Assembly: GCA_964613075.1 (NCBI GenBank)
Contig: CAZTFV010000001.1
Coordinates: forward strand, 23,521 to 63,963
Direction: 5' to 3'
Source of the DNA: an uncultured Gammaproteobacteria bacterium
Lineage (GTDB): Bacteria > Patescibacteriota > Microgenomatia > Levybacterales > UBA12049
DNA: 40,443 nt
Shown: positions 2,399-27,035 of the stretch, piece after piece
How the letters are laid out: every line of letters starts with the position of its first letter
Position numbering within the stretch: the stretch's first letter is position 1
The notes under the pieces: model-generated
What the model was told of the DNA's origin: nothing
Databases searched by the model: none
What the model saw: only the letters and a program-made list of their open reading frames with translations
Position numbers and translations under genes: made by a program

Positions 2399-3688
2399 CT
2401 ATCTCTTAAGGAATCCTTCGTAATTCCGCATCACCAGCTGTGCCTCAATTGCCTTAAACGTCTCAAGCACAACACTCACCACGATAAGAATACTGGTGCC
2501 GCCAAGAAGAAGCGTCTGTATACCGGTAATTGACTGGACAACTGTCGGCATAACTGCAATGATACCTAAGAATATCGCGCCGACCAAGGTGATACGCGTG
2601 AGAATATAGTTAAGGTATGCGCTTGTGGGACTACCTGGTCTGATACCCGGAATAAATCCGCCGTATTTTTGAATCTCTTCAGCGATTTTCTTCGGATTAA
2701 AAACCACAGCCGTATAGAAAAAGGTAAACCCGACGACCAACAGGAAATAAATAACATTATAAGGAATGTCTGTTGGCTGAAGCCACGTTGTCATAAATTG
2801 ACCAATACTGTTAAGGATAGCATTTTTCGAAACAAGTAAATAATTTCCCAGCAGGGACGGAAGAAGAACCAGTGATACGGCAAAAATGATTGGGATAACA
2901 CCCGCCTGATTAAGCCGAAGCGGTAAATGAGTCGATTGACCACCATACATCTTATTTCCACGCACCCGTTTTGCGTAATAAACAGTAATCTGCCGAACAG
3001 CTTCGTTGACAACAATAATCGCTGCAATAACCAAAATACCCATCGCCATAAATGCCAATAATCCCAATGCACTTTCTGCAGTTACTGTAGAGAGTGTCTG
3101 TCCTGCCACAACCGGCAGCCTTCCGACAATACCAGCAAAAATAAGAACCGAAATCCCATTTCCCACGCCCCGTTCAGTAATAAGCTCCCCAAGCCACACG
3201 AGAAGCATCGTCCCGGTAACCATGACGGCCAAAAAAGAAAGAAGCGATAGGGGATCAAGTATTCCTATAATGCCTTGGCTGCGAAGAAGTGCATACATAC
3301 CAATCGCCTGAAGAAACGCAAGCGGCACTGTCAGGATCCTTGTGTACTGGTTAATTTTCTTGCGTCCCTGCTCTCCCTCTTTTTGCATTTCTTCAAGTTT
3401 CGGAAAAACCATGGTCAAAAGTTGCAAAATAATTGAGGCATTAATATAAGGATTAAGACCAAGCGCCATAATGGAAAAATTTGCCAATGTCCCACCTGAA
3501 AAGATATCCAAGAGGCCAAGGAATTGATTCTGAGAAAAAAGGTTTTTTAATTGATTTACATTTACACCGGCAACAGGAATATGAGCAAAAATACGAAATA
3601 CCAGGAAAATAGCCAAGGTAAAAAGAATTTTCTTGCGAACCTCAGGGGTCCGGAAACTATTTCTCAAAACGGAAAAAAACTTGTTCAT
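2399..3688 (-). CDS. secY: preprotein translocase subunit SecY
   Basis: 429 aa polytopic membrane protein with SecY-typical segments ([27 protein letters not shown]). Follows rplO. Confidence 0.96.
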
Positions 3689-4137
3689 GGAGTTGAATCG
3701 TATGCAACGCTTCCCCCGGCTTTTTCAATCTTCTTAGCGGCCTGCTTTGATACTGCCAACCTCACCTGAAGCGGTACAGTCAGCTCGCCATCACCGAGGA
3801 TTTTTACACCATACGTTTTCGCATCTTCTTCTGATACAATCCGATGTTTAACAAGCGCTTGGACATCAACAACGCTGTTTTTCGGCAGGAGATTAAGCGC
3901 CTTTACATTAATAATAACAGGTGTTGGCTTAAATACTTTGTTTTTTCCTTTCCCTCTGTGAAACGGGAGGCGTTTTATCAACGGCAAAGCGCCTCCTTCA
4001 AAGGAAAGAGGGATGCTGGAACGCGCCTTTTGTCCTTTTGTACCCCGCCCGGCAGTCTTTCCCCGACCGCTTCCATGTCCTTGCCCGAGTCTTCTTCCTT
4101 GGCGCTTGGTAATTTTTTTCATATGTGCTAAATTCAT
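3685..4137 (-). CDS. rplO: 50S ribosomal protein L15
   Basis: 150 aa with a glycine/arginine-rich N-terminus ([25 protein letters not shown]). Operon position fits. Confidence 0.95.
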
Positions 4138-12970: not shown

Positions 12971-14155
12971 TTATTTCAGAATTTTTGCTATAACACCAGC
13001 TCCGACCGTCTTTCCGCCTTCGCGGATAGCAAATCGAAGTCCTTCTTCAAGCGCAACAGGCACAATTAACGTGACAGTCATCTTGGTATTATCACCTGGC
13101 ATAACCATCTCAACGCCACTTGGAAGCTCAACGTTGCCGGTCACATCAGTAGTTCTGATATAAAATTGTGGTCGATAACCCTTAAAGAACGGCGTATGCC
13201 GTCCGCCTTCTTCTTTTGTCAGAACATACACTTCTGCTTCAAATTGCGTATGGGGGGTGATTGAGCCTGGCTTGGCGATAACCTGACCACGCTCAACATC
13301 ATCTTTCTCAATACCGCGAAGAAGAAGGCCGACATTATCTCCTGCCTGACCTTCATCAAGCTGCTTTTTGAACATCTCAACGCCGGTTACAACTGTTGAT
13401 GTTGTTGTTTTAATACCTACAATTTCAACTGTTTCATTAACTTTGACAACGCCTCGCTCAATTCTACCGGTAACGACTGTTCCACGGCCTTTAATTGAGA
13501 AAACATCCTCAACCGGCATCAAGAATGGTTTATCGAGTGCACGCGTGGGTGTTGGAATATCATTGTCAACTGCGTCCATCAAGGCCATAATCTGTTTTTC
13601 TGCTTCGGCATCGCCTTCAAGCGCTTTTAATGCTGATCCTCGAATAATGGTGACTTTGTCTCCAGGATATTTATATTTTGTCAAAAGTTCGCGGACTTCC
13701 ATTTCGACGAGGTCCAAAAGTTCTTGATCTTGCACCATATCAACCTTATTCAGGAAGACAACGATTGCCGGTACCCCGACTTGGTAGGCAAGGAGGATAT
13801 GCTCTCGAGTTTGTGGCATTGGCCCATCAGGTGCAGAGACAACTAAAATAGCGCCGTCCATCTGAGCGGCACCGGTGATCATGTTTTTGATGTAATCTGC
13901 GTGTCCCGGAGCATCGATATGCGCATAGTGGCGCTTTTCTGTCTCGTATTCAAGGTGGGTAATATTAATAGTAACGCCCCGTGCTTTTTCTTCAGGGGCG
14001 TTGTCAATGTCTTCGTATTTTTTGGCTTGTGCCATTCCCTTTTTGGAAAGGGCTGTCGCGATTGCAGCAGAAAGTGTGGTCTTGCCGTGATCGACATGAC
14101 CGATTGTTCCGATATTGACGTGTGGTTTGGTTCTTTGAAATTTTGTATCTGCCAT
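12971..14155 (-). CDS. tuf: elongation factor Tu
   Basis: [28 protein letters not shown]...DAPGHADY...NKVD. The start is set at the ATG at 14155, because the ORF-track N-terminal 13 aa are not EF-Tu-like. Confidence 0.97.
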
Positions 14156-14487
14156 AGTAAAAATTCCTTCGAGAAAAAATAATCTCATCTGCAAATGAGA
14201 TTGAAATGTATGATACTACATTTTTTATTAGCCGTCAATACCCAAGATAAAATTATGTAAGAAAGAAATAAGAAGAGGGTAATAAAACAATTGTGGAGTT
14301 ATTTTTTAAAAAGGGTACGAGAAGGGGTGGTTGAAAAAAGAAGCGAGGTGACGTAGAGAAAACCCGCATACCCGAAAAGTGTTACACCCTGAAGAATTGT
14401 GGTCAGATTCACTGCCTCACAATTGAGCATAAAAAACAGTATAGCACAGCTGTCAAAAAATAGAAAAAGTTACGGGTTATGAACTAT

Positions 14488-15585
14488 TTAATAGAACGAA
14501 TACGCCCAGGTGCTATATGAGTTAATACCTCGTGTCTTCGAGTATTCCTGCTTCTTCTTTACTGATACAGGGCCTTCAAACCATACGATATGTGGCTTAT
14601 CATCCTTATCCGTATAAGCAATTTTTGTTTCCTCTGACGTTGAGTCTCTCGACACCGAACAGTCTTTATATTGACAATCAGTCAAAAAATCCGCCTGTAT
14701 CTTACTGTAACTAGTCGATTTTCCTGTTCCTACAGTCTTCTGCTTTTCATCAACCGTCCAATCATAGCCGAATAAACCAAAAACAACCGTCAATTTTTCT
14801 GCCGGCACAAAACGCAAATAATCATCAACCATCCTCTTAAAATCATATCCATAGTTCTCCCGCCCATTAAGCGGGAAATTCGGCCCAGGATTACCGCGTG
14901 CTTTATGAAAGTCATACGCCATAATCATCACGCGATCAGTATTTTTCGCAATCGTCTTTACATCAAACGGCCGTATTCGAAAAAACGTATCACCATACAA
15001 AAGAACAGAGAAAGACAGATCGCTGCTTTTGGCTTGCTTATGCATTTCCGCAATAAAGTTATTTATCCGCGTTATTGTTGAGTCAAATGGTAATGCCGAC
15101 AGCTCAAGATCAAGTACAACACCTGAAAAATCATTTTGTTTGGCAGTAGTGATTGTCTGGTTAATTACCTGCTGCGCAAGCTTTGTGTCCTTTAAAATAG
15201 CAAGGTTCGTCGTCGAATCAAGCATTCGAAGCGTCAGAAGCGAATCGGCTCCGTTTGCGACGCGGCTAAATTTGGAGAGATTTATATACCCCGCATCATT
15301 CGTACTTATCCCTTCTTTATCAGGCGTAATACCAAAGTATATAAGCTGGTCAATATTTTCCTCATCAATTGCTCGCTCCGGCAGTGTCCAATAAGGGACA
15401 AAAAGCGATGTTCGCTCTGTTGCGTTTTTTCGAACCGAGAGAGTAGGGGAGAGAGTAGGGGAGAGAGTTGAGTAAACAGGCTGAGCAATATCCTCCTTTA
15501 CTTTATTCTTAACTGAGTTGAAAGCATAGGGGAGTAAAAAAAGAAGAGGGAGCAGTAAACCAATGAGAACTGCTATCTTTTTCAC
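14488..15585 (-). CDS. secreted/membrane-anchored glycoside hydrolase family 18-like protein
   Basis: 365 aa with an N-terminal signal/TM (KKIAVLIGLLLPLLFLL). It has a GH18-like strand pattern (FVPYWTL, LIYFGI, FSGVVLDLELS resembling the DxxDxDxE region, MAYDFH). There is an SPTLSPTLS tandem near the N-terminus. Confidence 0.55.
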   Translation of the reverse strand: MKKIAVLIGLLLPLLFLLPYAFNSVKNKVKEDIAQPVYSTLSPTLSPTLSVRKNATERTSLFVPYWTLPERAIDEENIDQLIYFGITPDKEGISTNDAGYINLSKFSRVANGADSLLTLRMLDSTTNLAILKDTKLAQQVINQTITTAKQNDFSGVVLDLELSALPFDSTITRINNFIAEMHKQAKSSDLSFSVLLYGDTFFRIRPFDVKTIAKNTDRVMIMAYDFHKARGNPGPNFPLNGRENYGYDFKRMVDDYLRFVPAEKLTVVFGLFGYDWTVDEKQKTVGTGKSTSYSKIQADFLTDCQYKDCSVSRDSTSEETKIAYTDKDDKPHIVWFEGPVSVKKKQEYSKTRGINSYSTWAYSFY

Positions 15586-15612
15586 GCGTCACACTATTAT
15601 ACACCCGCTCGT

Positions 15613-17391
15613 CTACCCGAAGGTGAAGGCGTAGACTTCAGTGCCCGGGGTGAGGAATTCAAGCTTTAAAATATGATTCTCAGCCTCCCCTTTCAGATCT
15701 ACTAACTCATAGAGCCTGTCAGAATCAATTGTTACTATGCCATTCACAACGTCTATGCCCGCTTGTTTGCTGCTTATCAATTCCCCATCAAGCGAAACGC
15801 GAACTTGTGCTTTTGCGTTATTTGCGCCAGGTCGCATTACCAAAAACGCTTTTTGTGCGTCAAAATGCTCAACAAGCACTGCCTTGCTGCCTGCCATAGA
15901 ATATTGGTCCGCAATTGTCCATGTCCCACCAAGTGAGAATGTGTTCTGCTGTGGCGAATCAGTTATTGTATATGTATCTGTTCCGTTGCCAAGTCTGCTG
16001 CTTGGATAGAAAAATTCCATCCTTTTTGATCCCAAATATGTCTCGGGTGTATTGCGGGTCTTAGGTGTTTCATCGGGCATGTCGACCATATCCTCTGCCA
16101 CTTGCTGTTGTCCTGCCTCTTTAAGTAGGAGTTGAATCGCTTTTTCCATTTTGTCATACTCGCCTTCGCCAAAATGGACGCGTCGAATAATTCCTTTCGC
16201 ATCTATCAAATACTCAGCCGGCCAGTACTGATTGCTGTATGCATCCCACGTCTTATAATCATTATCCTGAGCGACAGGATAATGGATCTTAAACCGTTTG
16301 ATCGCATCTTCAACATTTGCAGTACTCTTTTCAAATTCAAATTCCGGCGTATGCACACCCACAACGACAAATCCTTGATCCTTGTACTTGTCATACCAGC
16401 TCATAACAAAAGGGAGTGTTCGAATACAGTTAATGCAAGTATATGTCCAGAAATCAATCAATACAACTTTCCCCCGCAGTTCTTGCATAGTCAATGCTTG
16501 TTGTCTAGTCGGCAGGTTTAACCACTTCGAAATCCCTACAAACTCAGGCGCCATTGGTGTATTTTGCGCATTAAACAATGCCTGCTCCTCAGCGCCGCCA
16601 GCCAGGTTGAGCTGGTTTAAATCTATCCCGGATTGCTTGTTATCTTTTAATTTCTTAAGCTCCGCTTTTACTGTATCGTTTTTTTCAAACGAGGTAAGAA
16701 AATTTGAATAAGAGGGGAGAGCATCAAGTATTTTTGCCTGCAACACTTTATCGTAATTGGTAGCTATGGCAAGGGCAGTTAAAAGGAGAACTGCTCCAAA
16801 AATCTGCTGGATTCTCCCTGTATAAGGGGATAAAAATTTCGTTTCACTGACAAATTTTTGCCCACCATAGGAGAAGAGGAAAAGAGGAATACTTACGCCG
16901 ATGAGATAAGCGATAGTGACGAGAATAACATCAAAACTGACCTTCGCTGTCGCCGAAAGTGTCGCTATTGCCGTGAGAATGGGCCCCGCGCACGGCGTCC
17001 AGACAACCCCAAGCGATAAACCAGTCACGAATCCACCGCCAAATCCGCTTCGCTTCGCATTTCCCCCTCCTAATCCCCCTGCAAGTCGGCTGACGAATCC
17101 TTCAAAAATGCGAGAAAGAAAAGGAACAACCATCATAAGCCCCAAAGCCACTAAAATAACAATCGCTAACCATCTCAGGATTTCAGGATTAAATCCAAAC
17201 AAACGCACGAGGTAGGAGATGCTCAGGTTATATGCACCAAAACTGAGGACGATACCAAGCGTTATACCAAGCGACTTAGCCCTTCCTCCACCGACTGAGG
17301 TAGATAAAACAATCGGCAACAGAGGCCAGATACAAGGAGCCAGAATCGTGACGAAACCGGCTAAGAATGCGAAAAGTAGCAAAATTTCCAT
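15613..17391 (-). CDS. DipZ-like fusion protein: CcdA/DsbD transmembrane thiol-disulfide transporter plus thioredoxin-like (TlpA/ResA-type) domain
   Basis: 592 aa. The N-terminal polytopic region has APCIWPLLP and WTPCAGP (CcdA-type cysteines). The middle domain has FWTYTCINCIRTLP (CxxC redoxin). A C-terminal beta-rich domain follows. Confidence 0.8.
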   Translation of the reverse strand: MEILLLFAFLAGFVTILAPCIWPLLPIVLSTSVGGGRAKSLGITLGIVLSFGAYNLSISYLVRLFGFNPEILRWLAIVILVALGLMMVVPFLSRIFEGFVSRLAGGLGGGNAKRSGFGGGFVTGLSLGVVWTPCAGPILTAIATLSATAKVSFDVILVTIAYLIGVSIPLFLFSYGGQKFVSETKFLSPYTGRIQQIFGAVLLLTALAIATNYDKVLQAKILDALPSYSNFLTSFEKNDTVKAELKKLKDNKQSGIDLNQLNLAGGAEEQALFNAQNTPMAPEFVGISKWLNLPTRQQALTMQELRGKVVLIDFWTYTCINCIRTLPFVMSWYDKYKDQGFVVVGVHTPEFEFEKSTANVEDAIKRFKIHYPVAQDNDYKTWDAYSNQYWPAEYLIDAKGIIRRVHFGEGEYDKMEKAIQLLLKEAGQQQVAEDMVDMPDETPKTRNTPETYLGSKRMEFFYPSSRLGNGTDTYTITDSPQQNTFSLGGTWTIADQYSMAGSKAVLVEHFDAQKAFLVMRPGANNAKAQVRVSLDGELISSKQAGIDVVNGIVTIDSDRLYELVDLKGEAENHILKLEFLTPGTEVYAFTFG

Positions 17392-17441
17392 AGATTAAAA
17401 TTCGAAATCCGAATATCGTCCTTCGATATACTCAGGACGAT

Positions 17442-17496
17442 CCTGAGCTTGTCGAATGGATCGAAATTCGAAACCCTTCGACTTCGCTCAGGGTAA
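17442..17496. repeat. inverted pair of the dispersed GC-rich repeat (REP-like hairpin)
   Basis: cctgagcttgtcgaatgg ... cccttcgacttcgctcagg. The two arms are imperfect reverse complements. Lies in the spacer between the thioredoxin gene and the DipZ-like gene. Confidence 0.55.
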
Positions 17497-17581
17497 ACTA
17501 AGTCGAGAACTAACAATGGAACAATTTAATAATGAAACAATTTTCTTCTCGACTCGCTAACGCTCGCTCGAAGAATAAAGA

Positions 17582-18307
17582 CTACAAAACACCATTCACT
17601 GTCTTTACAAGGTCTTCCTTACTCCACTGCTCTGTCTCATTGTATACTGCCTTGCCGTTTATTAAAATAACTTTTGTGTGCTGATTGGGAACAGAGAACG
17701 CTTTCGCTAGTGCCTTTTCATCATCATCAGTATCTGAATCATTCCAGTTTACCCGAAAACCGACAATGTTTGGATTATTCAAACTCTCAAATCCTGCTGC
17801 AATATCAGGCGCTTCCGCTCGGCACACAGGACACCAGTTGGCATAGAAGTTAAGGACAACTACCTTCCCCTCAGATAGTGCTTTGTCATAATCTGCTTTG
17901 CTAAATTCTACATACGGCGTTTTGGATCCGGCAATGACCTTTCCGCTGTATCCTTTCATCATCTCTTTCTCATCCATAATGCTGCCATCTTCCCAGATTG
18001 ACTGACCCTTAGTAAGCGTCACTGTCGTACCGTCAGGCTTAACCACAGTGCCATTTGTCATCACTTTTGTACCGTTCTTAAGGGTCGCGTCTTGAGTCAT
18101 CACCGTGAATTTGCCGTTTTCCTCAACCTGCATCTTCCCATCTTTCATCACATACCCTTTGCCCATCGCCATATGCTCTTCCTCTTTGGTCATCGCAGAT
18201 TTCTCTATATTTGTTGTCTTATTATTTTTATTACCTGCCAACCACACACCGCCAGCAACCAGCAAAACAATTACCACAGCTCCAATTACTAATGCTTTTG
18301 TGTTCAT
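17582..18307 (-). CDS. membrane-anchored thioredoxin-family protein
   Basis: 241 aa with an N-terminal TM (ALVIGAVVIVLLVAGGVWLAG) and a C-terminal thioredoxin fold with NFYANWCPVCRAEAP. Confidence 0.8.
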   Translation of the reverse strand: MNTKALVIGAVVIVLLVAGGVWLAGNKNNKTTNIEKSAMTKEEEHMAMGKGYVMKDGKMQVEENGKFTVMTQDATLKNGTKVMTNGTVVKPDGTTVTLTKGQSIWEDGSIMDEKEMMKGYSGKVIAGSKTPYVEFSKADYDKALSEGKVVVLNFYANWCPVCRAEAPDIAAGFESLNNPNIVGFRVNWNDSDTDDDEKALAKAFSVPNQHTKVILINGKAVYNETEQWSKEDLVKTVNGVL

Positions 18308-18384
18308 ATGTTTTGTTCACCTCCCTTTGTCCTCCGAAGGGACGTACCGTATGGTACATCCCGAAGCCTTGTGCGAAGGAGGAT

Positions 18385-18738
18385 TTAGTATTTTTTCTGT
18401 CCGTATAAAAGGCCAGTTATCTTCCCAAGAATCATGACAATTAAGGCAACAACAAGCCACGTATCGACATTGTGCGCAAAAGCTTGCATGATAATACCGA
18501 CAACTAAAACAGCCGCACCAGCGAGAAACCCAAATCTGGAAGCAAGCATTTTATGTAAGTTCTCACGCTCGTCTTTTACTTTCTCCCGCCAAATAAGGAT
18601 TGTAAAGATCCCAAAAACGACAATAAGTCCCAAAACAATCATCATTAAGAATGGGGGAGACATGAAGAGCCCAAAAGGTTCTAAAAAAAGAAGGAGCAGA
18701 ATAATCAAGAAAATAGAAAAAATCGCCTCTGTCTTCAT
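18385..18738 (-). CDS. small integral membrane protein (four predicted TM segments)
   Basis: 117 aa, hydrophobic throughout. Overlaps the upstream HTH gene by 4 nt, suggesting translational coupling. Confidence 0.65.
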   Translation of the reverse strand: MKTEAIFSIFLIILLLLFLEPFGLFMSPPFLMMIVLGLIVVFGIFTILIWREKVKDERENLHKMLASRFGFLAGAAVLVVGIIMQAFAHNVDTWLVVALIVMILGKITGLLYGQKKY

Positions 18739-18938
18739 ACTATTTGGAAGATTTCTTCAACGGACTTTTTAAAATATTTTGCAATTTTCATTGCCAAGAG
18801 CACTGATGGTGTGTAATTTCCTTTTTCAATGGCAATAATTGTTTGTCGTGCCACGCCAACTGCTTTTGCCAAGTCTTCCTGGGTGATGTCTTTTTCTATA
18901 CGGAGTTTGTAGACGTAATTTTTTACTTGCTCTGCCAT
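18735..18938 (-). CDS. XRE/Cro-family helix-turn-helix transcriptional regulator
   Basis: 67 aa, LRIEKDITQEDLAKAVGVARQTIIAIEKGNYTPSVLLAMKIAKYF is a textbook HTH_3 sequence. Confidence 0.88.
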   Translation of the reverse strand: MAEQVKNYVYKLRIEKDITQEDLAKAVGVARQTIIAIEKGNYTPSVLLAMKIAKYFKKSVEEIFQIV

Positions 18939-19008
18939 ACATATACAAGTACTGTAGGCAATTATACCATAAATGTCAAGTCGACTTTACATTTGAAAGA
19001 AATAAATA

Positions 19009-21117
19009 TTATGCTACGCGGCCGGTGAAGGTGGATTTGGCGAGCATTCCTTCGACAATATTTCGCGGCACTGCATCGTAATGCGAAGGCTCCATGTAGT
19101 ATGACGCTCTTCCCTGTGACATCGAGCGAAGTTGTGTAGCGTATCCTGAAAGTTCTGCAAGCGGAACCATTGCCAAAATGATTGTCGCATTTCCCCGCTC
19201 TTCTGTTCCTAAAATTTGTGCCCTTTTGGCTGAGAGGTCACCTATGATATCCCCCATAAATTCAGACGGCGTTGTTACCTCAACTTTCATGATCGGCTCC
19301 AAAAGTCCCATCTGTGTTTTTCTGGCAGCAGCCTGCAATGCTTGAGAGGCTGCGATCTTAAAGGCGACTTCTGAAGAGTCTACCTCGTGATAGGATCCGT
19401 CGTAACAGGTAACTTTGACATCAATAATCGGATAACCAAGCAATACTCCATTCTCAAGTGTCTCCCACACACCTTTTTCAACTGCCCTGACAAATTCTGC
19501 AGGGATTGCGCCTCCTTTGATTGCATTCACAAATTCATTCCCCTCGCCTCGCGTTTTCGGCTCTACCCTAAGGAAGCAGTGTCCGTACTGACCTCGTCCT
19601 CCTGATTGGCGAATATACTTTCCTTCACCCTCTGATGGAGCTTCAAATGTCTCTTTGTATGCAACCTGCGGCGCACCGACATTGGCAAGAACATTAAACT
19701 CCCGCTTCATCCGATCGACCATAACCTCAAGCTGTAACTCACCAATACCTGAGATAATAGTCTGTCCTGTCTCATGATTTGCCTTAACCCGAAATGTCGG
19801 GTCTTCTTCCATGAGGCGTTTTAACGCATAGCCTAATTTTTCCTGATCTGATTTTGTCTTTGGTTCAATAGCTAGAGAAATAACCGGCTCGGGAAAGGAA
19901 ATCTTTTCAAGGACAATTGGTTTTGACTCATCACAAAGTGTATCACCAGTAACTGTATCTTTTAATCCAACGATTGCGACGATTTCTCCGGCATACGCTT
20001 CTTTAATTTCTTCTCTGTTGTTTGCATGCATCAGAAGGAGGCGGCCTACCCGCTCCTTGACATTTTTGCTGCTGTTGTAAATATAGGTTCCTGAATTAAT
20101 AATGCCTGAGTACACACGAAAATACGTTAATTTTCCTACATGCGGATCATTCTGGATCTTAAATGCCAACCCTGAATACGCCTCTTCTGGAACAAGCTTT
20201 CTCACTTCCTCCTCACCGGTTTTGGGATTGATGCCTTTTACTTCCTTCAGATCAACAGGGGAGGGGAGATAGTCAACCACAGCATCGAGGAGTGGCTGTA
20301 CGCCTTTATTGCGTAAGCTAGTCCCAGCATAAATAGGAACCAATTTGTACGCAATAACCGCTGCGCGAAGTGCTTTTTTCAAGTCTTCAACAGCGATCTC
20401 CTCGCCTGCTAAATATTTTTCCAGGAGCGCATCATCTGTCTCTGCGATCTTCTCGATGAGTTTATGTCTATACTTCTCAACGCTGTCCTTCATCTCGGCC
20501 GGAATCTCGTCAGTTACCTCAAATTTCGCACCCAGCTCATCTGAACCCCAAATAATAGCCTTTCGCGTCAGTAAATCAATATTCCCTTTATACGAGTGCT
20601 CACTCCCGATCGGCAAAACCATAATTGCAGGATTTGCGCCCAAGCGATCCTCAATGCTTTTCACCGTTGCCAGAAAGTCAGCACCAAGCTTATCCATTTT
20701 ATTGATAAAGCAGATACGCGGCACTTTGTATTTATCCGCTTGCCTCCAGACTGTTTCAGATTGTGACTGCACGCCCTCTTCTGCGTCAAGCACGGTAATG
20801 CCTCCATCCAGGACACGAAGTGACCGTTCTACTTCTGCGGTGAAGTCAACGTGGCCTGGGGTATCAATGATATTGATTCTGTAATCTTTCCAAAATGTCG
20901 TTGTGGCCGCGGATACAATGGTAATACCACGCTCTTTTTCCTGCTCCATCCAGTCCATTTGGGTTGTTCCCGCATCAATATCGCCTATTTTGTAGGTTTT
21001 TCCTGTGTAATACAGAATGCGCTCGGTTGTCGTCGTTTTTCCCGCGTCAATATGGGCAATAATGCCGATATTGCGGATTTTATCGAGAGGAACTTGTCGT
21101 GATTTGGTGTCTGCCAT
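19009..21117 (-). CDS. fusA: elongation factor G
   Basis: 702 aa, [26 protein letters not shown]...DTPGHVDF...NKMDK, with full-length EF-G domain order. Confidence 0.97.
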
Positions 21118-21249: not shown

Positions 21250-21549
21250 TTACTTTCCTCCATAGAGATTTTCATGTGTCCCAAGCATATGAAAGATAAT
21301 AATTTTTTGCTTCCCTGTATGTTTTTCTTTAAATACTGCCCGCCAATCGTCTGTCACGTCAATACTTCTATATCCTGCAAGTTTTTCTCTCAATTGGTGG
21401 TTTCTAAGCGATGAATGATTGGAGTCTTCGAGAAACATCTCAAGAGTTTGTGCAAAAGCTGTTTTAATTTTTTTGTCTGCTTTTGAATATTGTTCTCTAA
21501 ATCTCGTCCCGTACTTTATCTCCGTTTGCATAGGAAGCGTTTGGGTCAT
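21250..21549 (-). CDS. type II toxin, RelE/ParE superfamily
   Basis: 99 aa. FREQYSKADKKIKTAFAQTLEMFLEDSNHSSLRNHQLREKLAGYRSIDVTDDWRAVFKE...IIIFHMLGTHENLY is the typical RelE/ParE-fold pattern. Lies downstream of, and overlapping, an RHH antitoxin gene. Confidence 0.8.
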   Translation of the reverse strand: MTQTLPMQTEIKYGTRFREQYSKADKKIKTAFAQTLEMFLEDSNHSSLRNHQLREKLAGYRSIDVTDDWRAVFKEKHTGKQKIIIFHMLGTHENLYGGK

Positions 21550-21817
21550 CTAGCCAGGCTATTGCATCTTTTGCATTCGTAAAAGTGGGTGACACTTTCC
21601 CAGCTTTTACATCCTCCTCTGATTTTCTCAGTGATTCAATCATATATTCATTTGGTTCCTCCATTTCAGCACTAAAGGTGATAGTTCTTGTCCTGCTGAA
21701 TTGTTTTAAGAACCCCTTGATGATGACGCTTAAGGGCATACCAAGCGCCTCAGCTGCCTCCTGCGCTTGTTTTTTCTCTTCCGGTTTTACTTTGATGTTT
21801 ATGATTGCTGTATCCAT
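21497..21817 (-). CDS. type II antitoxin, RelB/DinJ (ribbon-helix-helix) family
   Basis: 106 aa. The N-terminus INIKVKPEEKKQAQEAAEALGMPLSVIIKGFLKQF is RHH-like. It is paired with the toxin. Confidence 0.78.
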   Translation of the reverse strand: MDTAIINIKVKPEEKKQAQEAAEALGMPLSVIIKGFLKQFSRTRTITFSAEMEEPNEYMIESLRKSEEDVKAGKVSPTFTNAKDAIAWLDDPNASYANGDKVRDEI

Positions 21818-21858: not shown

Positions 21859-22066
21859 GGTTTTGTAGGGAATAAGTGTACTGCCATAGGAACTCTCGGT
21901 TGTCGCTGTTTTGGGAAATCTCAGTTGACGTAAATATATTCGAACGAAAACTGAAATTTTATGAATTACTATTTCAGAGACAGTTAAATTATCCTTATAA
22001 GGCAGCTAAAACGCTTTAGAGCATGTTTTAATTGTCAAGCTGAATAGCTCTTTCATATAAGTCTAA

Positions 22067-22109
22067 TTGCGACAGTTGAGACTTCTCATTTTGCGACAAT
22101 TGAGATTTC
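22067..22109 (+). promoter_or_regulatory. two direct repeats (TTGCGACArTTGAGAyTTC) with 24-bp period just upstream of the first GC-rich cassette
   Basis: 22067-22085 ttgcgacagttgagacttc and 22091-22109 ttgcgacaattgagatttc are 17/19 identical. A TTGTCA-N17/18-(C)ATATAAG promoter-like string lies at 22032-22062. Confidence 0.4.
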
Positions 22110-22132
22110 CGTTCACACTAGAATCTCCCTAC

Positions 22133-22594
22133 ATGACCGAAGCCGCCAGACCGTTAGACCAGGACCAAGCAAGCCTTGCTGCCTCCTGGGATATGTCCGC
22201 TCTCTCATGGTCGCTGGATGTCGCGGCCGAGGCCCGCATCGACGTCGCCCACGGCGAGGGTGTCGCTTACCGCCTCGGCCCCGGGCCGGGGACGCTCCTC
22301 GAGCTCTTCCCCGCCACGGGAACGGTCCGACTCACCGGGCAAGACGTGCAGCTGACCCTGTTTCGCCAGGACCCGCCCCGGCTCGCGGACGAAGGCCTGG
22401 TCTTCGAGCTTGCCACCGAGCCCCGCCGGCGCTGGCTCTCCGTCTCCCCCACCACCGGCGAGGTCTTGCTCTTCTACGACCCATCGGTCGGAGAAGCCGT
22501 CTGCGCCCCGGAAACGGCCCAGGACGCGTCGGAACCAGCCGAACGCCCCAAACCTCTGCACTGTAAATTTGCAAAATTTTGTTTAAAAATTTAG
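22133..22594 (+). CDS. hypothetical protein, cassette 0 (high-GC codon usage)
   Basis: The ATG at 22133 coincides with the AT-to-GC transition. Third codon positions are almost all G/C (gcc gcc ... gtc gcg gcc gag gcc cgc atc gac). The frame only closes at a TAG inside repeat A (22592-22594). No family recognised. Confidence 0.6.
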   Translation: MTEAARPLDQDQASLAASWDMSALSWSLDVAAEARIDVAHGEGVAYRLGPGPGTLLELFPATGTVRLTGQDVQLTLFRQDPPRLADEGLVFELATEPRRRWLSVSPTTGEVLLFYDPSVGEAVCAPETAQDASEPAERPKPLHCKFAKFCLKI

Positions 22595-22670
22595 CCTCAA
22601 AAAAAGTGAAAAATACTAATTTTTCAAAATTCTGAGGCTAAAAAAGTTCAACTTTTTTTGCAAATTTACA
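22562..22670 (+). repeat. cassette-array repeat copy A (109 bp, diverged, AT-rich interior)
   Basis: TGTAAATTTGCA...TGCAAATTTACA termini plus the inner boxes TTAGCCTCA (22591-22599) and TGAGGCTAA (22633-22641). Confidence 0.85.
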
Positions 22671-22986
22671 AGTTCCATGACGAGTTGCTCAAACGTTCCC
22701 ATTCCTTGCGTCCTCTCACAACTCGTTCCGCGCCAGGGTGGCTGGCCGGGCAGCCAGAGCGCTGGCCGGGGCTTGCGGTCAGTTCGCGAAGCCGACCCGG
22801 ACGAGGGAAGGAACCACAGGGGGCCCGAGCTGTCAAGAGGTATTGACGAATCCTGCAATCACTTGTTGCCAAAAACGCAACTAGATGTTGCAATTTCCGC
22901 AACCGGGTGGTAAGATCGACTTGGGTATGAGGGAGAGGGAAGGAGTAGGCGACATGCCGTTTCGGCACCAGCGATCAGATCCCCGG

Positions 22987-23283
22987 TCAGCGGCCACCGA
23001 GGCCGTGGTGGGGGTTGGTCTGGCCCCAGGTCTGAAACTCGCGCCGGAAGCGCAGGCGCTCTTCAACGGTGGGGTAAATTGGAGCCTGGCGGAACTTGAT
23101 CGACTCGTCGACCTCAAAGCGAGGAAGGGCGATCAAACCGCCATCGACGTTTCGCCCTGCACTCACGACGACCACCTGGTTCCCGGCAATCCTGATACGC
23201 ACGAAAGGCCAGGATAGCATTCTATGCACACCAGAGAACTGGAGGGAAACGGCAACGAGCCCATGAAGAGCGGGTATCGGCAT
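22987..23283 (-). CDS. hypothetical protein, cassette 1 (strand assignment tentative)
   Basis: 98-aa ORF. My hand count over the region shared with the antisense ORF 22885..23217 gives GC1/GC2/GC3 of about 66/47/75% for the minus frame. The plus frame gives 75/47/66%. GC3>GC1>GC2 is expected of a real high-GC gene and favours minus. No good SD is present. The start could instead be the internal MLSWPF. Confidence 0.4.
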   Translation of the reverse strand: MPIPALHGLVAVSLQFSGVHRMLSWPFVRIRIAGNQVVVVSAGRNVDGGLIALPRFEVDESIKFRQAPIYPTVEERLRFRREFQTWGQTNPHHGLGGR

Positions 23284-23383
23284 GCTCCATCACGATGAGA
23301 GAGCGAGGAGACGGATCAGACATGTCCCTTCCAAACGACGACCCGTCGCCTGATCAGCCAATGATGGCGATACGGCTGAGGAT

Positions 23384-23485
23384 TGTAAGTTTGCACGATT
23401 TTCTTTGCACGAATTAGCCTCACATGATCAAACGCTTTGCAAAGTTTGAGGCTGAGATATGCAAAATAGTTCGTGCAAACTTACA
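23384..23485 (+). repeat. cassette-array repeat copy B (102 bp, consensus)
   Basis: tgtaagtttgcacgattttctttgcacgaattagcctcacatgatcaaacgctttgcaaagtttgaggctgagatatgcaaaatagttcgtgcaaacttaca. Confidence 0.95.
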
Positions 23486-23578
23486 ATTCTACACCCTGAC
23501 CCCCTTTCGAGACACCATCTAAGACCGCTGAGCAGCGCCGGCGGGTGGACCTCAGCGCGCGTACCAGGCGTACCCCTT

Positions 23579-23968
23579 CTACCGCGCCCGGCGCGGGGGC
23601 AACGGCCGGCTGCCCGCCTCCGCGCATGGCTCGCGCGGAGCGAGCGCGGGCGCATGAAGGCGATCGACCTCTCTGATCAAGGCACGTAATTGGTCAACGG
23701 TTTCCAATAATCGCAGGCCATCGCTGAAGTTCTCGTCTCCGGCCATCACGTATTCCATCCCTTCTGGAACAGTGCTTTGGAGGTCGACCATATTCTCGTA
23801 CTGCTCTCCAGCTCGTGCCAAAACCCGAACGTCAACACCGCTCATGGCCGCAGCATATCTGAATATAATCGAGTCCTCACCCGTCGATACGAGGATCGTC
23901 ACTGGCCCCTTGGTCGCTTCTTGTTCATTCTCTAGTAGAGACAGGAGCCGGTTCTTTTCGGCGTTCAT
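23579..23968 (-). CDS. hypothetical protein, cassette 2
   Basis: 129 aa. A strong SD, AAGGAGGTGA (23985->23976), lies 7 nt upstream of the ATG at 23968. A TATAAT box and the palindrome GTGTATTATACAC (24032-24044) are upstream. No family recognised. Confidence 0.65.
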   Translation of the reverse strand: MNAEKNRLLSLLENEQEATKGPVTILVSTGEDSIIFRYAAAMSGVDVRVLARAGEQYENMVDLQSTVPEGMEYVMAGDENFSDGLRLLETVDQLRALIREVDRLHAPALAPREPCAEAGSRPLPPRRAR

Positions 23969-24214
23969 CTCTTCCTCACCTCCTTTCCGGGCAGGTCAGG
24001 CGATCGCGTCGGCAACGCACAGATCGTCCGAGTGTATTATACACTTTATGTCAACACGATCGCGGCGCGGCGGCAGGAGTTGCGGCCCCGGAGACGCGGC
24101 GGCGCTCCGTGCAGCCAGGCGGCAGCAAGGCGAGACCATGAGACTCCCTCCCCTTCCCCTCCTGGTGCCGACTGCGCCGACGGGACGGTGCGCCGGGTCG
24201 GCGAGCCGTTTGCG

Positions 24215-24316
24215 TGTAAGTTTGCACGAACTATTTTGCATATCTCAGCCTCAAACTTTGCAAAGCGTTTGATCATGTGAGGCTAATTCGTGCAAAGAAA
24301 ATCGTGCAAACTTACA
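24215..24316 (-). repeat. cassette-array repeat copy C (102 bp, consensus, reverse orientation)
   Basis: By my reading, the reverse complement of 24215-24316 is identical to copies B, D and E. Confidence 0.95.
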
Positions 24317-24653
24317 ACTCTCGGCATCGAACTGGAACAGGAAAGGCCTGACGAATCGGTATCCGTCCATCCTGTCGCTCTCTCTGGGCTTCCAAGAGGC
24401 GAAACAACCAAAAGCTGACAAATCCGGGTCAAGTGCCGGAAGGATACTTGATCCCGTATATTGGCACTTCCCCCGCTGCGTTCCGTGATCCTCCCCTCGA
24501 CCAGCGGCACGGCGGTAGTCGAGCAGCACAACGAGTTGGTCACCGGCCGAGTGATCCGTTCGGGAGGGGGCGGATCGGAACGAGAGCTGGCGACACACTT
24601 CATCTTCACCACAATTTGACAATTTACTCAATTTATGATATACGACATATGAT

Positions 24654-25055
24654 ATGGATATAGAAGCAAAATTTGTTTCAAATAGACTAGATTTCAAATC
24701 ATTTCTCTATCATCACCATGAAGCTATTCCGAGAATCCCTGAACAACCTTCCGCTCACACCGCGCCGGAGGGTGGAGGTCGTGGCGAGGCGCGCTCCCCT
24801 CAGCCGGAGCGAGTAACTGATCCCGTGGCCAATCCGGATCGAGCTCGGCTGGAGGCGTTCCTGACCCCGGGGGTGGTAAGCGGTACTGTTGAGTGGGAAA
24901 CGACAATGGGGAGCTATGAAATTGACTTTGATACTCGAGATGAACCCGGAAACCCATCAAAGTACTTTTATCCGAAAGATCAGATAGTTTTCGATAATAG
25001 TTTATATTCATCTCGCCATCAATCTGATTTATCACAACGTCAACTAGGTGAGTAA
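24654..25055 (+). CDS. hypothetical protein, cassette 3 (weak call)
   Basis: 133-aa ORF downstream of an AT-rich promoter-like stretch (TTGACA in the 24610s, then a 17-nt spacer, then TATACG). The C-terminal half (SYEIDFDTRDEPGNPSKYFYPKDQIVFDNSLY) looks protein-like. The N-terminal half has mixed composition. Confidence 0.3.
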   Translation: MDIEAKFVSNRLDFKSFLYHHHEAIPRIPEQPSAHTAPEGGGRGEARSPQPERVTDPVANPDRARLEAFLTPGVVSGTVEWETTMGSYEIDFDTRDEPGNPSKYFYPKDQIVFDNSLYSSRHQSDLSQRQLGE

Positions 25056-25259
25056 TCCCGCGAGCACCGCGTGTTCCCACCCCGTCATTCGGTTAATCAT
25101 CGGATCCCGATTAGCTCCGGGCTGGTCGTCTAGCACCTGTTTGTGGACGAACTAGCCATTACCCGGCGCAGAAGGGGTCTTGGTTCCCGTAACGGCCCTT
25201 CTCGCTATCATCTTCCCTAAATTCACGCTTATTCGTCAATGTTTGCGGTTCCAAGTAAG

Positions 25260-25361
25260 TGTAAGTTTGCACGATTTTCTTTGCACGAATTAGCCTCACA
25301 TGATCAAACGCTTTGCAAAGTTTGAGGCTGAGATATGCAAAATAGTTCGTGCAAACTTACA
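25260..25361 (+). repeat. cassette-array repeat copy D (102 bp, consensus)
   Basis: Identical to copy B. Confidence 0.95.
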
Positions 25362-25675
25362 CAACGCTAAGGAACAGAACTATCTGCTCTACCTGGCGGG
25401 CCGGCTCCCGCCGCCGCTCTCAAGACTCCAGTTAACCATGGATGAACTGGGGTATGTCTTCGATATGGTTGGCATTCTCATAGATAATTTGCGTTTAAGG
25501 TATAAATCTAAAGATATTTAACGAAACTACAATCAATGAAAAGATTGACAAATTAGTCAACACTGTGCTACCCTCCACGAGGGGTCGGCGTCATTGACCT
25601 GCTGACCAAGCCGTTCCTAATCCAACCGTGTCACGTCAAGGGGGCACCCGCCTGACCAGACCTGGAGGAGACAGG

Positions 25676-26128
25676 ATGGAGCCACAGCAGGAAGGACAGA
25701 CGACCACCAGCACGATGAGGCAACCAGAGACCAGCCCGGACGGCTCCGTTGCCGGTTCGGACCTTACCCGCTTATCCAAACGGCTCAATACTCGCCGCCG
25801 TACGGCGGCGAAGGAGCAGATCGAGGGCGTGTTCACGCAGTATCTGCAGGAGGTGCAGGCGCTGGGCATCGTCTCTGAGATCCTGGTCGGGTCCAAAGCC
25901 CACGCGCCAGGCGCTTACCTCTGGAACGTGTTCGCCGAAGACTTCCGCGTGGAGCAGTGGGCCCGTCCCTCGTTTGCCGAGCTCAACCGGCTCACCTACC
26001 GTCTCGAGCAGGACTTACCCAAGGGCCTCTCGCTTCGCATCGCCCACGTGAACCCTTGCGACCTCGCCCAGGTCCGAGAGCGCTGTGACCAACAGCAGAT
26101 CGAGACCGAGCTCATCCCCCTGCGCTGA
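25676..26128 (+). CDS. hypothetical protein, cassette 4
   Basis: 150 aa from the ATG at 25676, preceded by GGAGGAG with a 5-nt gap. GC3 is high throughout. The palindrome TTGACaaattaGTCAA (25545-25560) lies upstream. The stop is 16 nt before repeat E. No family recognised. Confidence 0.65.
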   Translation: MEPQQEGQTTTSTMRQPETSPDGSVAGSDLTRLSKRLNTRRRTAAKEQIEGVFTQYLQEVQALGIVSEILVGSKAHAPGAYLWNVFAEDFRVEQWARPSFAELNRLTYRLEQDLPKGLSLRIAHVNPCDLAQVRERCDQQQIETELIPLR

Positions 26129-26144
26129 TGATGGACGCCCTCGT

Positions 26145-26246
26145 TGTAAGTTTGCACGATTTTCTTTGCACGAATTAGCCTCACATGATCAAACGCTTTG
26201 CAAAGTTTGAGGCTGAGATATGCAAAATAGTTCGTGCAAACTTACA
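26145..26246 (+). repeat. cassette-array repeat copy E (102 bp, consensus)
   Basis: Identical to copy B. Confidence 0.95.
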
Positions 26247-26650
26247 CAGTCATTGCTCATTATTTTCTCAGATGCTTCCAAGGCCTTGCGTTCTATCTCG
26301 TCATCATCTTCGTCGTCATCATCACCGGCAAATTCTTCGAACGAGAGATCCATCTTCATGTTGTCGGTTTCCCAAGATCTTCCGCTGAAGCTGCGAAGTG
26401 CGCGTGGGGTATCGGAATAGGAAGAGGCCATCTCCGTCATGATCAGAGAAAGCCTCCACGTCATTTGTTCATAGTATCGAGCCGGAGAAAATTCCATGAG
26501 GTTCGAGTAGGCGAGACGATGTCCAAACATCTTTCGTATGTCGTACTCCATCGTTCTTGTTTCTACCCACTCCAAAATCTGATCGTTGGTCAGAGAGTGA
26601 TTGTTGGTCACAAATTCGACCAGATCGTCACATCGGTCCTTGCTCGCCAT
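26189..26650 (-). CDS. hypothetical acidic protein, cassette 5
   Basis: The ATG at 26650 (MASKDRCDDLVEF...) lies 2 nt from repeat F. There is a DDDDEDDDE run near the C-terminus. The frame closes only inside repeat E, adding the tail SLHELFCISQPQTLQSV. No family recognised. Confidence 0.6.
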   Translation of the reverse strand: MASKDRCDDLVEFVTNNHSLTNDQILEWVETRTMEYDIRKMFGHRLAYSNLMEFSPARYYEQMTWRLSLIMTEMASSYSDTPRALRSFSGRSWETDNMKMDLSFEEFAGDDDDEDDDEIERKALEASEKIMSNDCVSLHELFCISQPQTLQSV

Positions 26651-26652
26651 GG

Positions 26653-26764
26653 TGTAAGTTTGCAACGAAATTTTACACCTAAAGTTGCAAGAATTTTACT
26701 GTCTTAGCCTCAAAAGTGTAAAATTCCTGCAAATAAAACAGTAAAATAATCGTGCAAATTTACA
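26653..26764 (-). repeat. cassette-array repeat copy F (112 bp, diverged; orientation tentative)
   Basis: It has the termini TGTAAGTTTGCA...CGTGCAAATTTACA. Its reverse complement begins tgtaaatttgcacgatt, matching 16/17 of the consensus left arm. It carries only one inner box (ttagcctca at 26704-26712). Confidence 0.75.
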
Positions 26765-27035
26765 CTTACACGAGCCAGACGAAGCAGAATGGGGAAAAGG
26801 TTTTAAAACAAGGAGGAAAAACTACAGTATCTTGCACCTGACACGATCGATACCATTCAAGAGACTATCGAAGCCGGTAAAGAACCGAGAAAGACAACTG
26901 AGGTACCAGTATACCAATTTCCTTCTTAGACTACCTCATCTATCACCTATTTTATTGCCTCTCTTTTTTTGACAAAAAGTCCCAAACCTCATAGACTGGA
27001 CTTAGGCCTATCAATTCACATAGGTCTTTATTGCT

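Follow-up and report, generated by a model that had tools for sequence, protein, structure and literature searches.

Our analysis of a 40,443-nt stretch of contig CAZTFV010000001.1, hereafter the window, centres on a palindromic repeat of about 100 nt that occurs six times in a GC-rich block between the core genes fusA and pilN. We propose, as the probable though by no means certain explanation of the whole, that these repeats are solo end elements belonging to an IS21-family clade of insertion sequences (IS) shared by Chloroflexota and bacteria of the candidate phyla radiation (CPR), and that they bracket foreign genes accreted at this site. Each repeat would be a non-autonomous palindromic end element of a clade that encodes the DDE transposase IstA and the AAA+ helper IstB, and would consist of two inverted arms of ~40-55 nt, each with a 5'-TGTNA...CA-3' tip and TTTGCA subsites. 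By this account, six foreign pieces from GC-rich donors would have been placed between a toxin-antitoxin pair beside fusA and pilN, and the insertion would have truncated a native gene upstream of pilN. Whatever its origin, the structure itself is real and recurrent.

Repeat search, the raw sequence and MAFFT alignment located the six copies, A to F, and an unfiltered search with a covariance model of the family recovered exactly these and no other match in the 40 kb. An initial annotation of this DNA had placed six copies at the same coordinates, on which repeat search, alignment and covariance model agree, and had read B, D, E and the reverse complement of C as identical over 102 nt, for which the alignment gives 100% identity. 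Copy B (23384-23485, + strand, 102 nt; 90.6 bits) thus has the same sequence as D (25260-25361, +, 102 nt; placed by alignment, folding and the family model) and E (26145-26246, +, 102 nt; placed by alignment and the family model), and C (24215-24316, 102 nt), which scores 90.6 bits on the - strand, is 100% complementary to D and E. The outer copies are of diverged subtypes: A (22562-22670, +, 109 nt) has TGTAAATTTGCA termini, and F (26653-26764, 112 nt) a single AGCCTCA box. Two copies had been annotated as inverted, which is right for C, the only clearly flipped copy; F is not orientable under the covariance model (36.4 versus 34.9 bits on the two strands); A is oriented like B, D and E (80 bits on the + strand versus 49 on the -). 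The window contains the 12-nt terminus TGTAARTTTGCA 12 times, against 0.66 expected, and all 12 occurrences are the two tips of the six elements, with none elsewhere in the window. In copy B the tips form a 15-nt perfect terminal inverted repeat, and both arms carry TTTGCA(CGA) subsites at positions 7 and 21. A nested long hairpin is predicted for every copy (z = -5.3 to -7.0 versus shuffled controls), and the GC content of the elements in the window is 21-38%. An Rfam scan of the entire window gave no match, and a tRNA scan nothing.

The repeat belongs to a family that reaches well beyond this contig. Public genomes and metagenomes were scanned for the two termini at the proper distance, which returned 44 loci (numbered here with the prefix L), and at least 25 distinct elements also carry the internal boxes, which the scan did not require. 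Family members are 90-115 nt long, with a perfect inverted repeat of 12-15 nt at the tips, and follow the consensus TGTAAGTTTGCA - variable - TTAGCCTCA - 10-17 nt - TTTTGCAAA - TTGAGGCTAA - variable - TGCAAACTTACA; an inner pair, TTAGCCTCA/TGAGGCTAA, is conserved, and a TTTGCAAA palindrome lies at the centre. Their stems are conserved in sequence, the pairs being mostly invariant with very little covariation. The hosts are CPR bacteria (Roizmanbacteria, Gottesmanbacteria and Daviesbacteria, 35-45% GC) and Chloroflexota (Ktedonobacteraceae, Thermomicrobia and other metagenome-assembled genomes (MAGs) or metagenomes, 52-64% GC). The sole element of L001 (1019-1127), when reverse-complemented, matches copy A at 95% identity, and copy F is 87% identical to, and of the same subtype as, an element of L042 (2608-2721). 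Solitary copies lie in unrelated contexts across public data, and a whole 596-Gb genome collection holds only ~8 true family members. The family was found neither in 2.9 million viral contigs nor in phage and plasmid collections: the sole viral match was an unrelated 114-nt palindrome with only the 12-nt tips in common, and a match to a Chlorohelix plasmid proved spurious, there being no complete element. Eleven of the loci (L002, L003, L011, L012, L013, L020, L025, L029, L030, L038 and L040) have the 12-nt tips but no inner boxes and were set aside. Clustering the open reading frames (ORFs) of the 44 loci for a conserved neighbour yielded syntenic families only and no universal partner, and a search for the terminal sequences in the searchable literature returned only unrelated primers.

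The evidence that carries our proposal is a physical tie between the element and IS21-family istA/istB genes in five independent loci (L001, L028, L045/L046, L051 and L059), a tie that does not support the initial description of the system as undescribed and without a linked enzyme. In L001 the stop codon of an IstB_IS21 gene (Pfam, 1.8e-45) lies within the tip of an element that stands directly upstream of pilN, and in L028 the C-terminal part of IstA overlaps IstB, followed after 19 nt by the element and then by unrelated DNA. With the L028 IstB as query, the contigs of nine relatives were chosen by similarity and contig size only. The element lies 7 nt 3' of istB in L045/L046 (66% identity to the L028 IstB), the contig of L059 (53% identity) begins inside an element, 168 nt before istA, and L054 has a partial element at its contig start. 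In the Daviesbacteria locus L051, which has five elements, the last abuts the start of a decayed istA. The element is thus present in four of the nine istAB loci picked by IstB similarity, as against ~8 members in 596 Gb, so that chance is not a reasonable explanation. An operon of istA (DDE, rve) followed by istB (PF01695) is found in L028, L045/46, L051, L059 and L054, and the istA-istB operons that lie directly against the element have rve, Mu-transpos_C_2 and IstB_IS21 domains. For a Pfam census of the neighbourhoods, 98 ORFs close to elements were taken from 20 non-redundant loci; among the 25 families listed, IstB_IS21 and rve are the sole mobile-DNA families to recur, a resolvase and a Mutator transposase occur a single time each, and there is no tyrosine recombinase.

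The geometry of these loci also bears on the role of the element. The distance from the istB stop to the element is -5 to 19 nt, and in L051 ~0 nt separate the element from the istA start, which leaves no space for separate IS ends of ~50 bp; for this reason we take the element itself to be the end structure, and element-istA-istB-element to be the autonomous unit. Judged from their sequence, the arms carry putative IS21-end features, namely size, TGTNA start, CA end and repeated subsites: they measure 39-55 nt, their tips read TGTAAG or TGTCAG, and TTTGCA subsites are repeated in them with a spacing and orientation that vary among members. The ends of IS5376, for comparison, are ~54-bp repeats that start with TGTTAA/TGTCAA, finish with CA and contain two direct repeats, both of which IstA requires; IstA can use two identical ends and works on tandem junctions (PMC10122671). 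The likeness to the IS21 family lies in istA-istB set directly against the element and in the arms. The differences are that each end here is a full ~100-nt palindrome with tip-like boxes at both extremities, that the inner boxes TTAGCCTCA and TTTGCAAA have no IS5376 counterpart, and that solo copies are arrayed around foreign genes without the 4-8 bp duplications that canonical IS21 transposition produces (PMC10122671).

The same association could be read the other way round, with the repeats as host palindromes of the repetitive extragenic palindrome (REP), bacterial interspersed mosaic element (BIME) or Correia kind, with a structural or regulatory role, for example as terminators or insulators, and merely targeted by IS21-like elements, as REPs are by some members of IS110 and IS3. 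The elements are intergenic and AT-rich and provide stop codons and hairpins between genes, the absence of duplications would fit elements that had not themselves transposed, and insertion sequences that target REPs are documented (PMC12288879). Lineage-specific REPs, however, would not be expected to share the same boxes across CPR and Chloroflexota genomes of such different GC content, and the element-istAB distances leave no room for the IS ends that a targeting element should bring with it. Moreover, IS-adjacent and solo copies are 100% identical, as in L028, whose element matches two solo copies in L019 from the same metagenome, and all window copies are clustered at one locus: the 4.7 kb of foreign DNA contain the six, and the 36 kb of native sequence are free of them. 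The neighbourhood census, among the families it listed, included no Y1 transposase of the REP-associated tyrosine transposase (RAYT) kind. We regard host palindromes as an improbable explanation.

Several observations nevertheless weigh against the IS21 end-element proposal. No single contig holds a complete element-istAB-element unit with both flanks; L045 has no element within 883 nt upstream of istA; the distant CPR istAB units of L047-L050, L053, L055 and L056 have neither the element nor detectable terminal repeats; and in L001 the orientation of the element relative to istB is different. The window itself is without istAB, tblastn finding no IstA/IstB relics in it, and the mechanism of array growth set out below is wholly inferred. 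Finally, no target-site duplication of at least 3 bp was found at ~60 elements, solitary or arrayed, a check that included solitary elements in unique GC-rich DNA and in which 2-bp matches appeared at chance frequency.

The missing duplications also mean that the element is not a canonical miniature inverted-repeat transposable element (MITE), which it otherwise resembles. Like the MITEs Correia/CREE (Correia repeat enclosed element), MITEAba12 and RUP (repeat unit of pneumococcus), it is ~100 nt long and non-coding, with terminal inverted repeats, and can flank cargo; related autonomous IS with the same ends exist, the L028 element being that of the L019 solo copies, and others occurring in L045, L051 and L059. 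Unlike MITEs, it lacks target-site duplications, and its copies in the window are clustered rather than dispersed. Target-site duplication is a defining feature of MITEs, and a 2024 review of them is without any mention of IS21.

A pair of loci suggests what moves instead. L015 (4452-6057) and L036 (1493-3098) share an 'element + 1515 nt' segment (1,608 nt) at 99.9% identity in otherwise unrelated contexts within GC-rich genomes. The segment starts at the element tip, its far end, 1.5 kb on, is without an element, and in L015 it breaks a gene that is intact in L035. The moving unit thus seems to be one element plus adjacent DNA, which would also fit the leftmost foreign segment of the window (c1, below), and by analogy it resembles the translocatable units of IS26 or one-ended transposition more closely than the cut-and-paste of a miniature transposon. 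L015 also encodes a serine recombinase (3511-4116; Resolvase, 5e-50), 340 nt from the element; as the enzyme it was rejected, since it is present in one of 20 loci.

We hypothesize that the element tips are the substrate of IstA/IstB provided in trans, and that arrays grow by units of one element plus adjacent DNA, inserted at or beside a resident element. A transposase reaction, either conservative or one-ended, could bring this about, and so could homologous recombination of identical copies with one another; where two copies are inverted, such recombination would turn segments round, as with copy C. Growth of this kind would leave no duplications and would keep the copies identical, much as in IS26 translocatable units. 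IS26 and other members of the IS6 family form such units and arrays of pseudo-compound transposons, and share with the present system identical short units that alternate with unrelated cargo in both orientations, internal copies without duplications, and a unit made of one element plus adjacent DNA. The difference is that here the repeat is a 100-nt non-coding sequence, not a complete IS with its transposase, and that the enzyme family is IS21, for which we know of no demonstration of a conservative targeted reaction.

Arrays of the element are not peculiar to the window. The Roizmanbacteria locus L010 has four ~100-nt copies in the order + - + -, plus a fifth of another subtype, in an array that begins 213 nt upstream of fusA, on the same fusA side as the block in the window. 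In L051 the inter-element segments have 52-59% GC versus 35% in the flank, an independent replicate of GC-rich cargo in a CPR genome, and L019, L021, L032, L034, L040 and L044 each have at least two copies close together. The cassette-like architecture recognised at the outset, gene-spaced palindromes around self-contained foreign ORFs, stands, with arrays recurring in L010, L051, L019 and L021. One GC-rich segment of L051 (676-1104) encodes a fragment matching Replication-relaxation (PF13814), which hints that some cargo is of plasmid origin.

The cargo of the window is foreign by composition. The GC-rich block first noticed is real, with 50-59% GC in 1-kb windows versus ~43% outside, and the block sizes then given (429, 713, 729, 943, 783 and 406 bp) are correct; that the copies bound the blocks holds save for the first, which is without an element on its left side. 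Segments c1 to c6 have 68, 60, 62, 52, 58 and 48% GC versus ~43% for native DNA, a heterogeneity which argues that they are foreign and came from different sources rather than from a single island. The ORFs of c1, c3, c5 and c6 have the codon-position signature of genes from GC-rich organisms, with GC content at third positions (GC3) of up to 0.81 versus 0.43 in native genes.

In c1 (22111-22561, +, no element to its left), an ORF of 153 aa (22133-22594) runs into copy A, inside which it stops, and its GC at the three codon positions (0.75/0.52/0.80) is a coding signature, native genes having a GC3 of ~0.43. Segment c2 (22671-23383) has competing ORFs on the two strands (22885-23217, +; 22987-23283, -), the + ORF with a promoter-like TTGACG...TAAGAT upstream. 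Segment c3 (23486-24214, -) carries a gene of 129 aa (23579-23968) with an extended -10 of its own (TGTATAAT) and a strong Shine-Dalgarno sequence; the protein has two distant homologs, P0124 (38% identity, E = 2.7e-14) and P0125, with a tblastn match of 42% over 90 aa (E = 2.5e-21). P0124 is located in a 65% GC contig without elements, a genome of that composition being the native home of the c3 family. An apparent operon partner of the c3 homolog, considered as a test for truncated cargo, was discarded, since it resembles a spurious ORF. Segment c4 (24317-25259, +) is a mosaic with an AT-rich promoter-like stretch and an ORF of 133 aa (24654-25055), and c5 (25362-26144, +) carries a gene of 150 aa (25676-26128; GC3 0.81) with TTGACA and a Shine-Dalgarno sequence upstream. 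In c6 (26247-26652, -) an ORF of 153 aa (26189-26650) starts beside copy F and ends inside copy E. Several segments, c2, c3 and c5 for example, thus bear out the reported Shine-Dalgarno or promoter-like signals of individual ORFs. The absence of a recognised family holds too: searches of Pfam, PHROG and NCBIfam with the cargo ORFs gave no credible family, PADLOC a single match too weak to credit, and the other element-bearing loci no homologs. The products of c1 and c5 are orphans, each matching only its own record among 5.8 billion proteins. Removing the elements in silico to rejoin ORFs proved uninformative, because long open frames arise by chance in GC-rich DNA.

Gene-sized spacing of this kind raises the question of kinship with integrons, and in particular with clusters of attC sites lacking an integrase (CALINs), which the initial annotation had put forward. 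Such a system would use the repeats as folded single-strand sites, analogous to attC, at which some recombinase would excise circles of 'gene + site' and insert them at a chromosomal platform. The likenesses are considerable: gene-spaced imperfect palindromes with strong hairpin potential and highly similar sites per array; one self-contained, mostly orphan ORF per segment; no target-site duplications; a site-plus-cargo unit found in two contexts with a break exactly at the site edge; and content that varies in the same chromosomal neighbourhood of related genomes. A regex for the R''/R' cores, applied to each element plus 10 nt on either side on both strands, however, finds no terminal match to RYYYAAC/GTTRRRY in any of the six copies and internal matches in copy A only, so that the termini are indeed unlike attC, as had been noticed. 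The boxes keep their sequence, and not just their pairing, from phylum to phylum with hardly any covariation, whereas attC sites are conserved in folded structure; and the orientation is mixed (+ + - + + here, + - + - in L010), where an integron array would have all its sites in one direction. The spacing (at least two sites, <4 kb) and the single-ORF content would suit the promoterless cassettes of a CALIN, but several segments have promoter-like and Shine-Dalgarno signals of their own. The enzymes differ as well. An integron needs the tyrosine recombinase IntI, a CALIN does not; neither the window ORFs that were scanned nor the 25 families listed around elements in the 20 loci include a tyrosine recombinase, a serine recombinase occurs once, and the only recurrent linked enzyme among those families is IS21 IstA/IstB, a DDE transposase system. 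The window ORFs scanned also include, among the 25 families listed, no recombinase, transposase or cas gene, as the initial annotation had said, and it was equally right that this is not a canonical integron, no enzyme for one being present among them. Kinship with integrons or CALINs, by contrast, is not borne out, and we regard an integron-like system as improbable.

An entirely technical origin would be a threading error, in which identical 102-nt repeats common to several genomes of the sample let the assembler join GC-rich fragments of unrelated origin into a CPR contig. In its favour, four copies are 100% identical with one of them flipped, the segments differ in composition, and GC-rich Chloroflexota, which could be present in the same sample, carry elements of this family. 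The outer joins (native-c1-A-c2 and c6-F-native), however, pass through the unique, diverged copies A and F, so that the presence of foreign DNA in the CPR chromosome is independent of the identical repeats, and arrays with non-identical copies (95-97%) occur in the independent assemblies L010 and L051. Even a wrong path needs every fragment to be truly flanked by elements, and only the order and orientation of c3-c5 are at risk. An artefact of this sort is very improbable.

The window is core chromosome, with the S10/spc ribosomal operon, secY, adk, map, tuf and fusA on one side of the block, and pilN, pilO, glycosyltransferases and a DUF2298 protein on the opposite side. The fusA gene has 73% nucleotide identity with the Roizmanbacteria MAG L010, and the pilN side is syntenic with L001; both matches point to a CPR bacterium of the Microgenomates type, in line with the CPR-like context suggested for the host from the start. 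At the right edge, between copy F and the pilN side, a start-less open frame (26807-26929, +) ends in ...EVPVYQFPS and a stop. This frame is probably what is left of the 3' end of a native gene that stood before pilN, and on that assumption probably marks the right edge of the inserted DNA. L001 retains just the final 7 codons of this frame, and window-L001 homology begins exactly at 26906; the remnants of unequal length suggest that the native gene was cut back to different extents in the two genomes, as happens beside active transposable elements. At the other edge, a YafQ-like toxin / RelB antitoxin pair (21250-21817, -; Pfam YafQ_toxin 1.3e-07, RelB 3.3e-06) sits between fusA and the block. 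A YafQ-like pair also lies immediately 3' of istB in L054 (3776-4355), and toxin-antitoxin modules may travel with, or stabilise, the elements.

A number of further features were noted in the window and the related loci. The L001 contig, CAZSQB010000035.1, carries the label 'uncultured Gammaproteobacteria' but is probably mis-binned, since its synteny with the CPR window extends over ~7 kb (pilN, pilO and the genes that follow) at a nucleotide identity of 65-74%. Between tuf and fusA, a GH18 hydrolase and two thioredoxin/DsbD-type genes intervene (12974-21117), and there is no rpsL/rpsG upstream of fusA; the str-operon neighbourhood is thus rearranged, independently of the repeat array. Just left of the block (21914-21934 and 22068-22110), two tandem copies of TTGCGACA(G/A)TTGAGA(C/T)TTC have an inverted partner 155 nt upstream (21 nt, 86% complementary); these repeats are operator-like and overlap a promoter-like TTGCGA...TAGAAT before the c1 ORF. 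Beside the istA genes, L045 has a Fic-MerR fusion gene (3-878) 5 nt upstream on the same strand, which may be passenger cargo of the insertion sequence, and in L053 (304-3315), L055 (84-3596) and L049 (209-3399) a ParB_N or DndB-like gene lies directly upstream of istA-istB on the same strand, units that may represent a three-gene, non-canonical or domesticated IS21 derivative. A different 114-nt palindrome, with TGTAAATTTGCA tips and no AGCCTCA boxes, was seen in L013, L020, L025, L030 and L060 (4513-4626 in L060, for example); its carriers are a viral contig of 145 kb and related contigs from metagenomes, and the genes around it are conserved. Runs of a quasi-palindromic 12-mer, TGYAARYTTRCA, occur in L011 (492-650) and L003 (2398-2490), at ~21-nt spacing in a Phycisphaerae MAG and as paired 31-nt palindromes in a gammaproteobacterial MAG. 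They resemble iterons, or operators for a protein that binds DNA as a dimer, and the motif may predate the IS family.

Integron-like spacing by itself is no evidence for an integron. If our explanation is correct, an IS21-family element would be able to persist as a palindromic end module of ~100 nt, to spread with no duplication of its target and to gather foreign genes into arrays. IS26 is known to behave in this way, as are integrons through another chemistry, but IS21 is not. The explanation would also mean an active uptake of foreign GC-rich genes into the core chromosome of CPR bacteria, which are usually seen as streamlined and poor in mobile DNA, and an element family common to CPR bacteria and Chloroflexota would provide a concrete marker for gene flow between both groups. 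A bolder version, which we think unlikely but worth stating, is that IS21-type machinery runs a cassette-accretion platform analogous to integrons, with duplication-free units, a CPR hot spot beside core genes and cargo from element-bearing GC-rich organisms such as Chloroflexota. Were that so, the arrays would record gene flow between reduced-genome bacteria and their neighbours or hosts.

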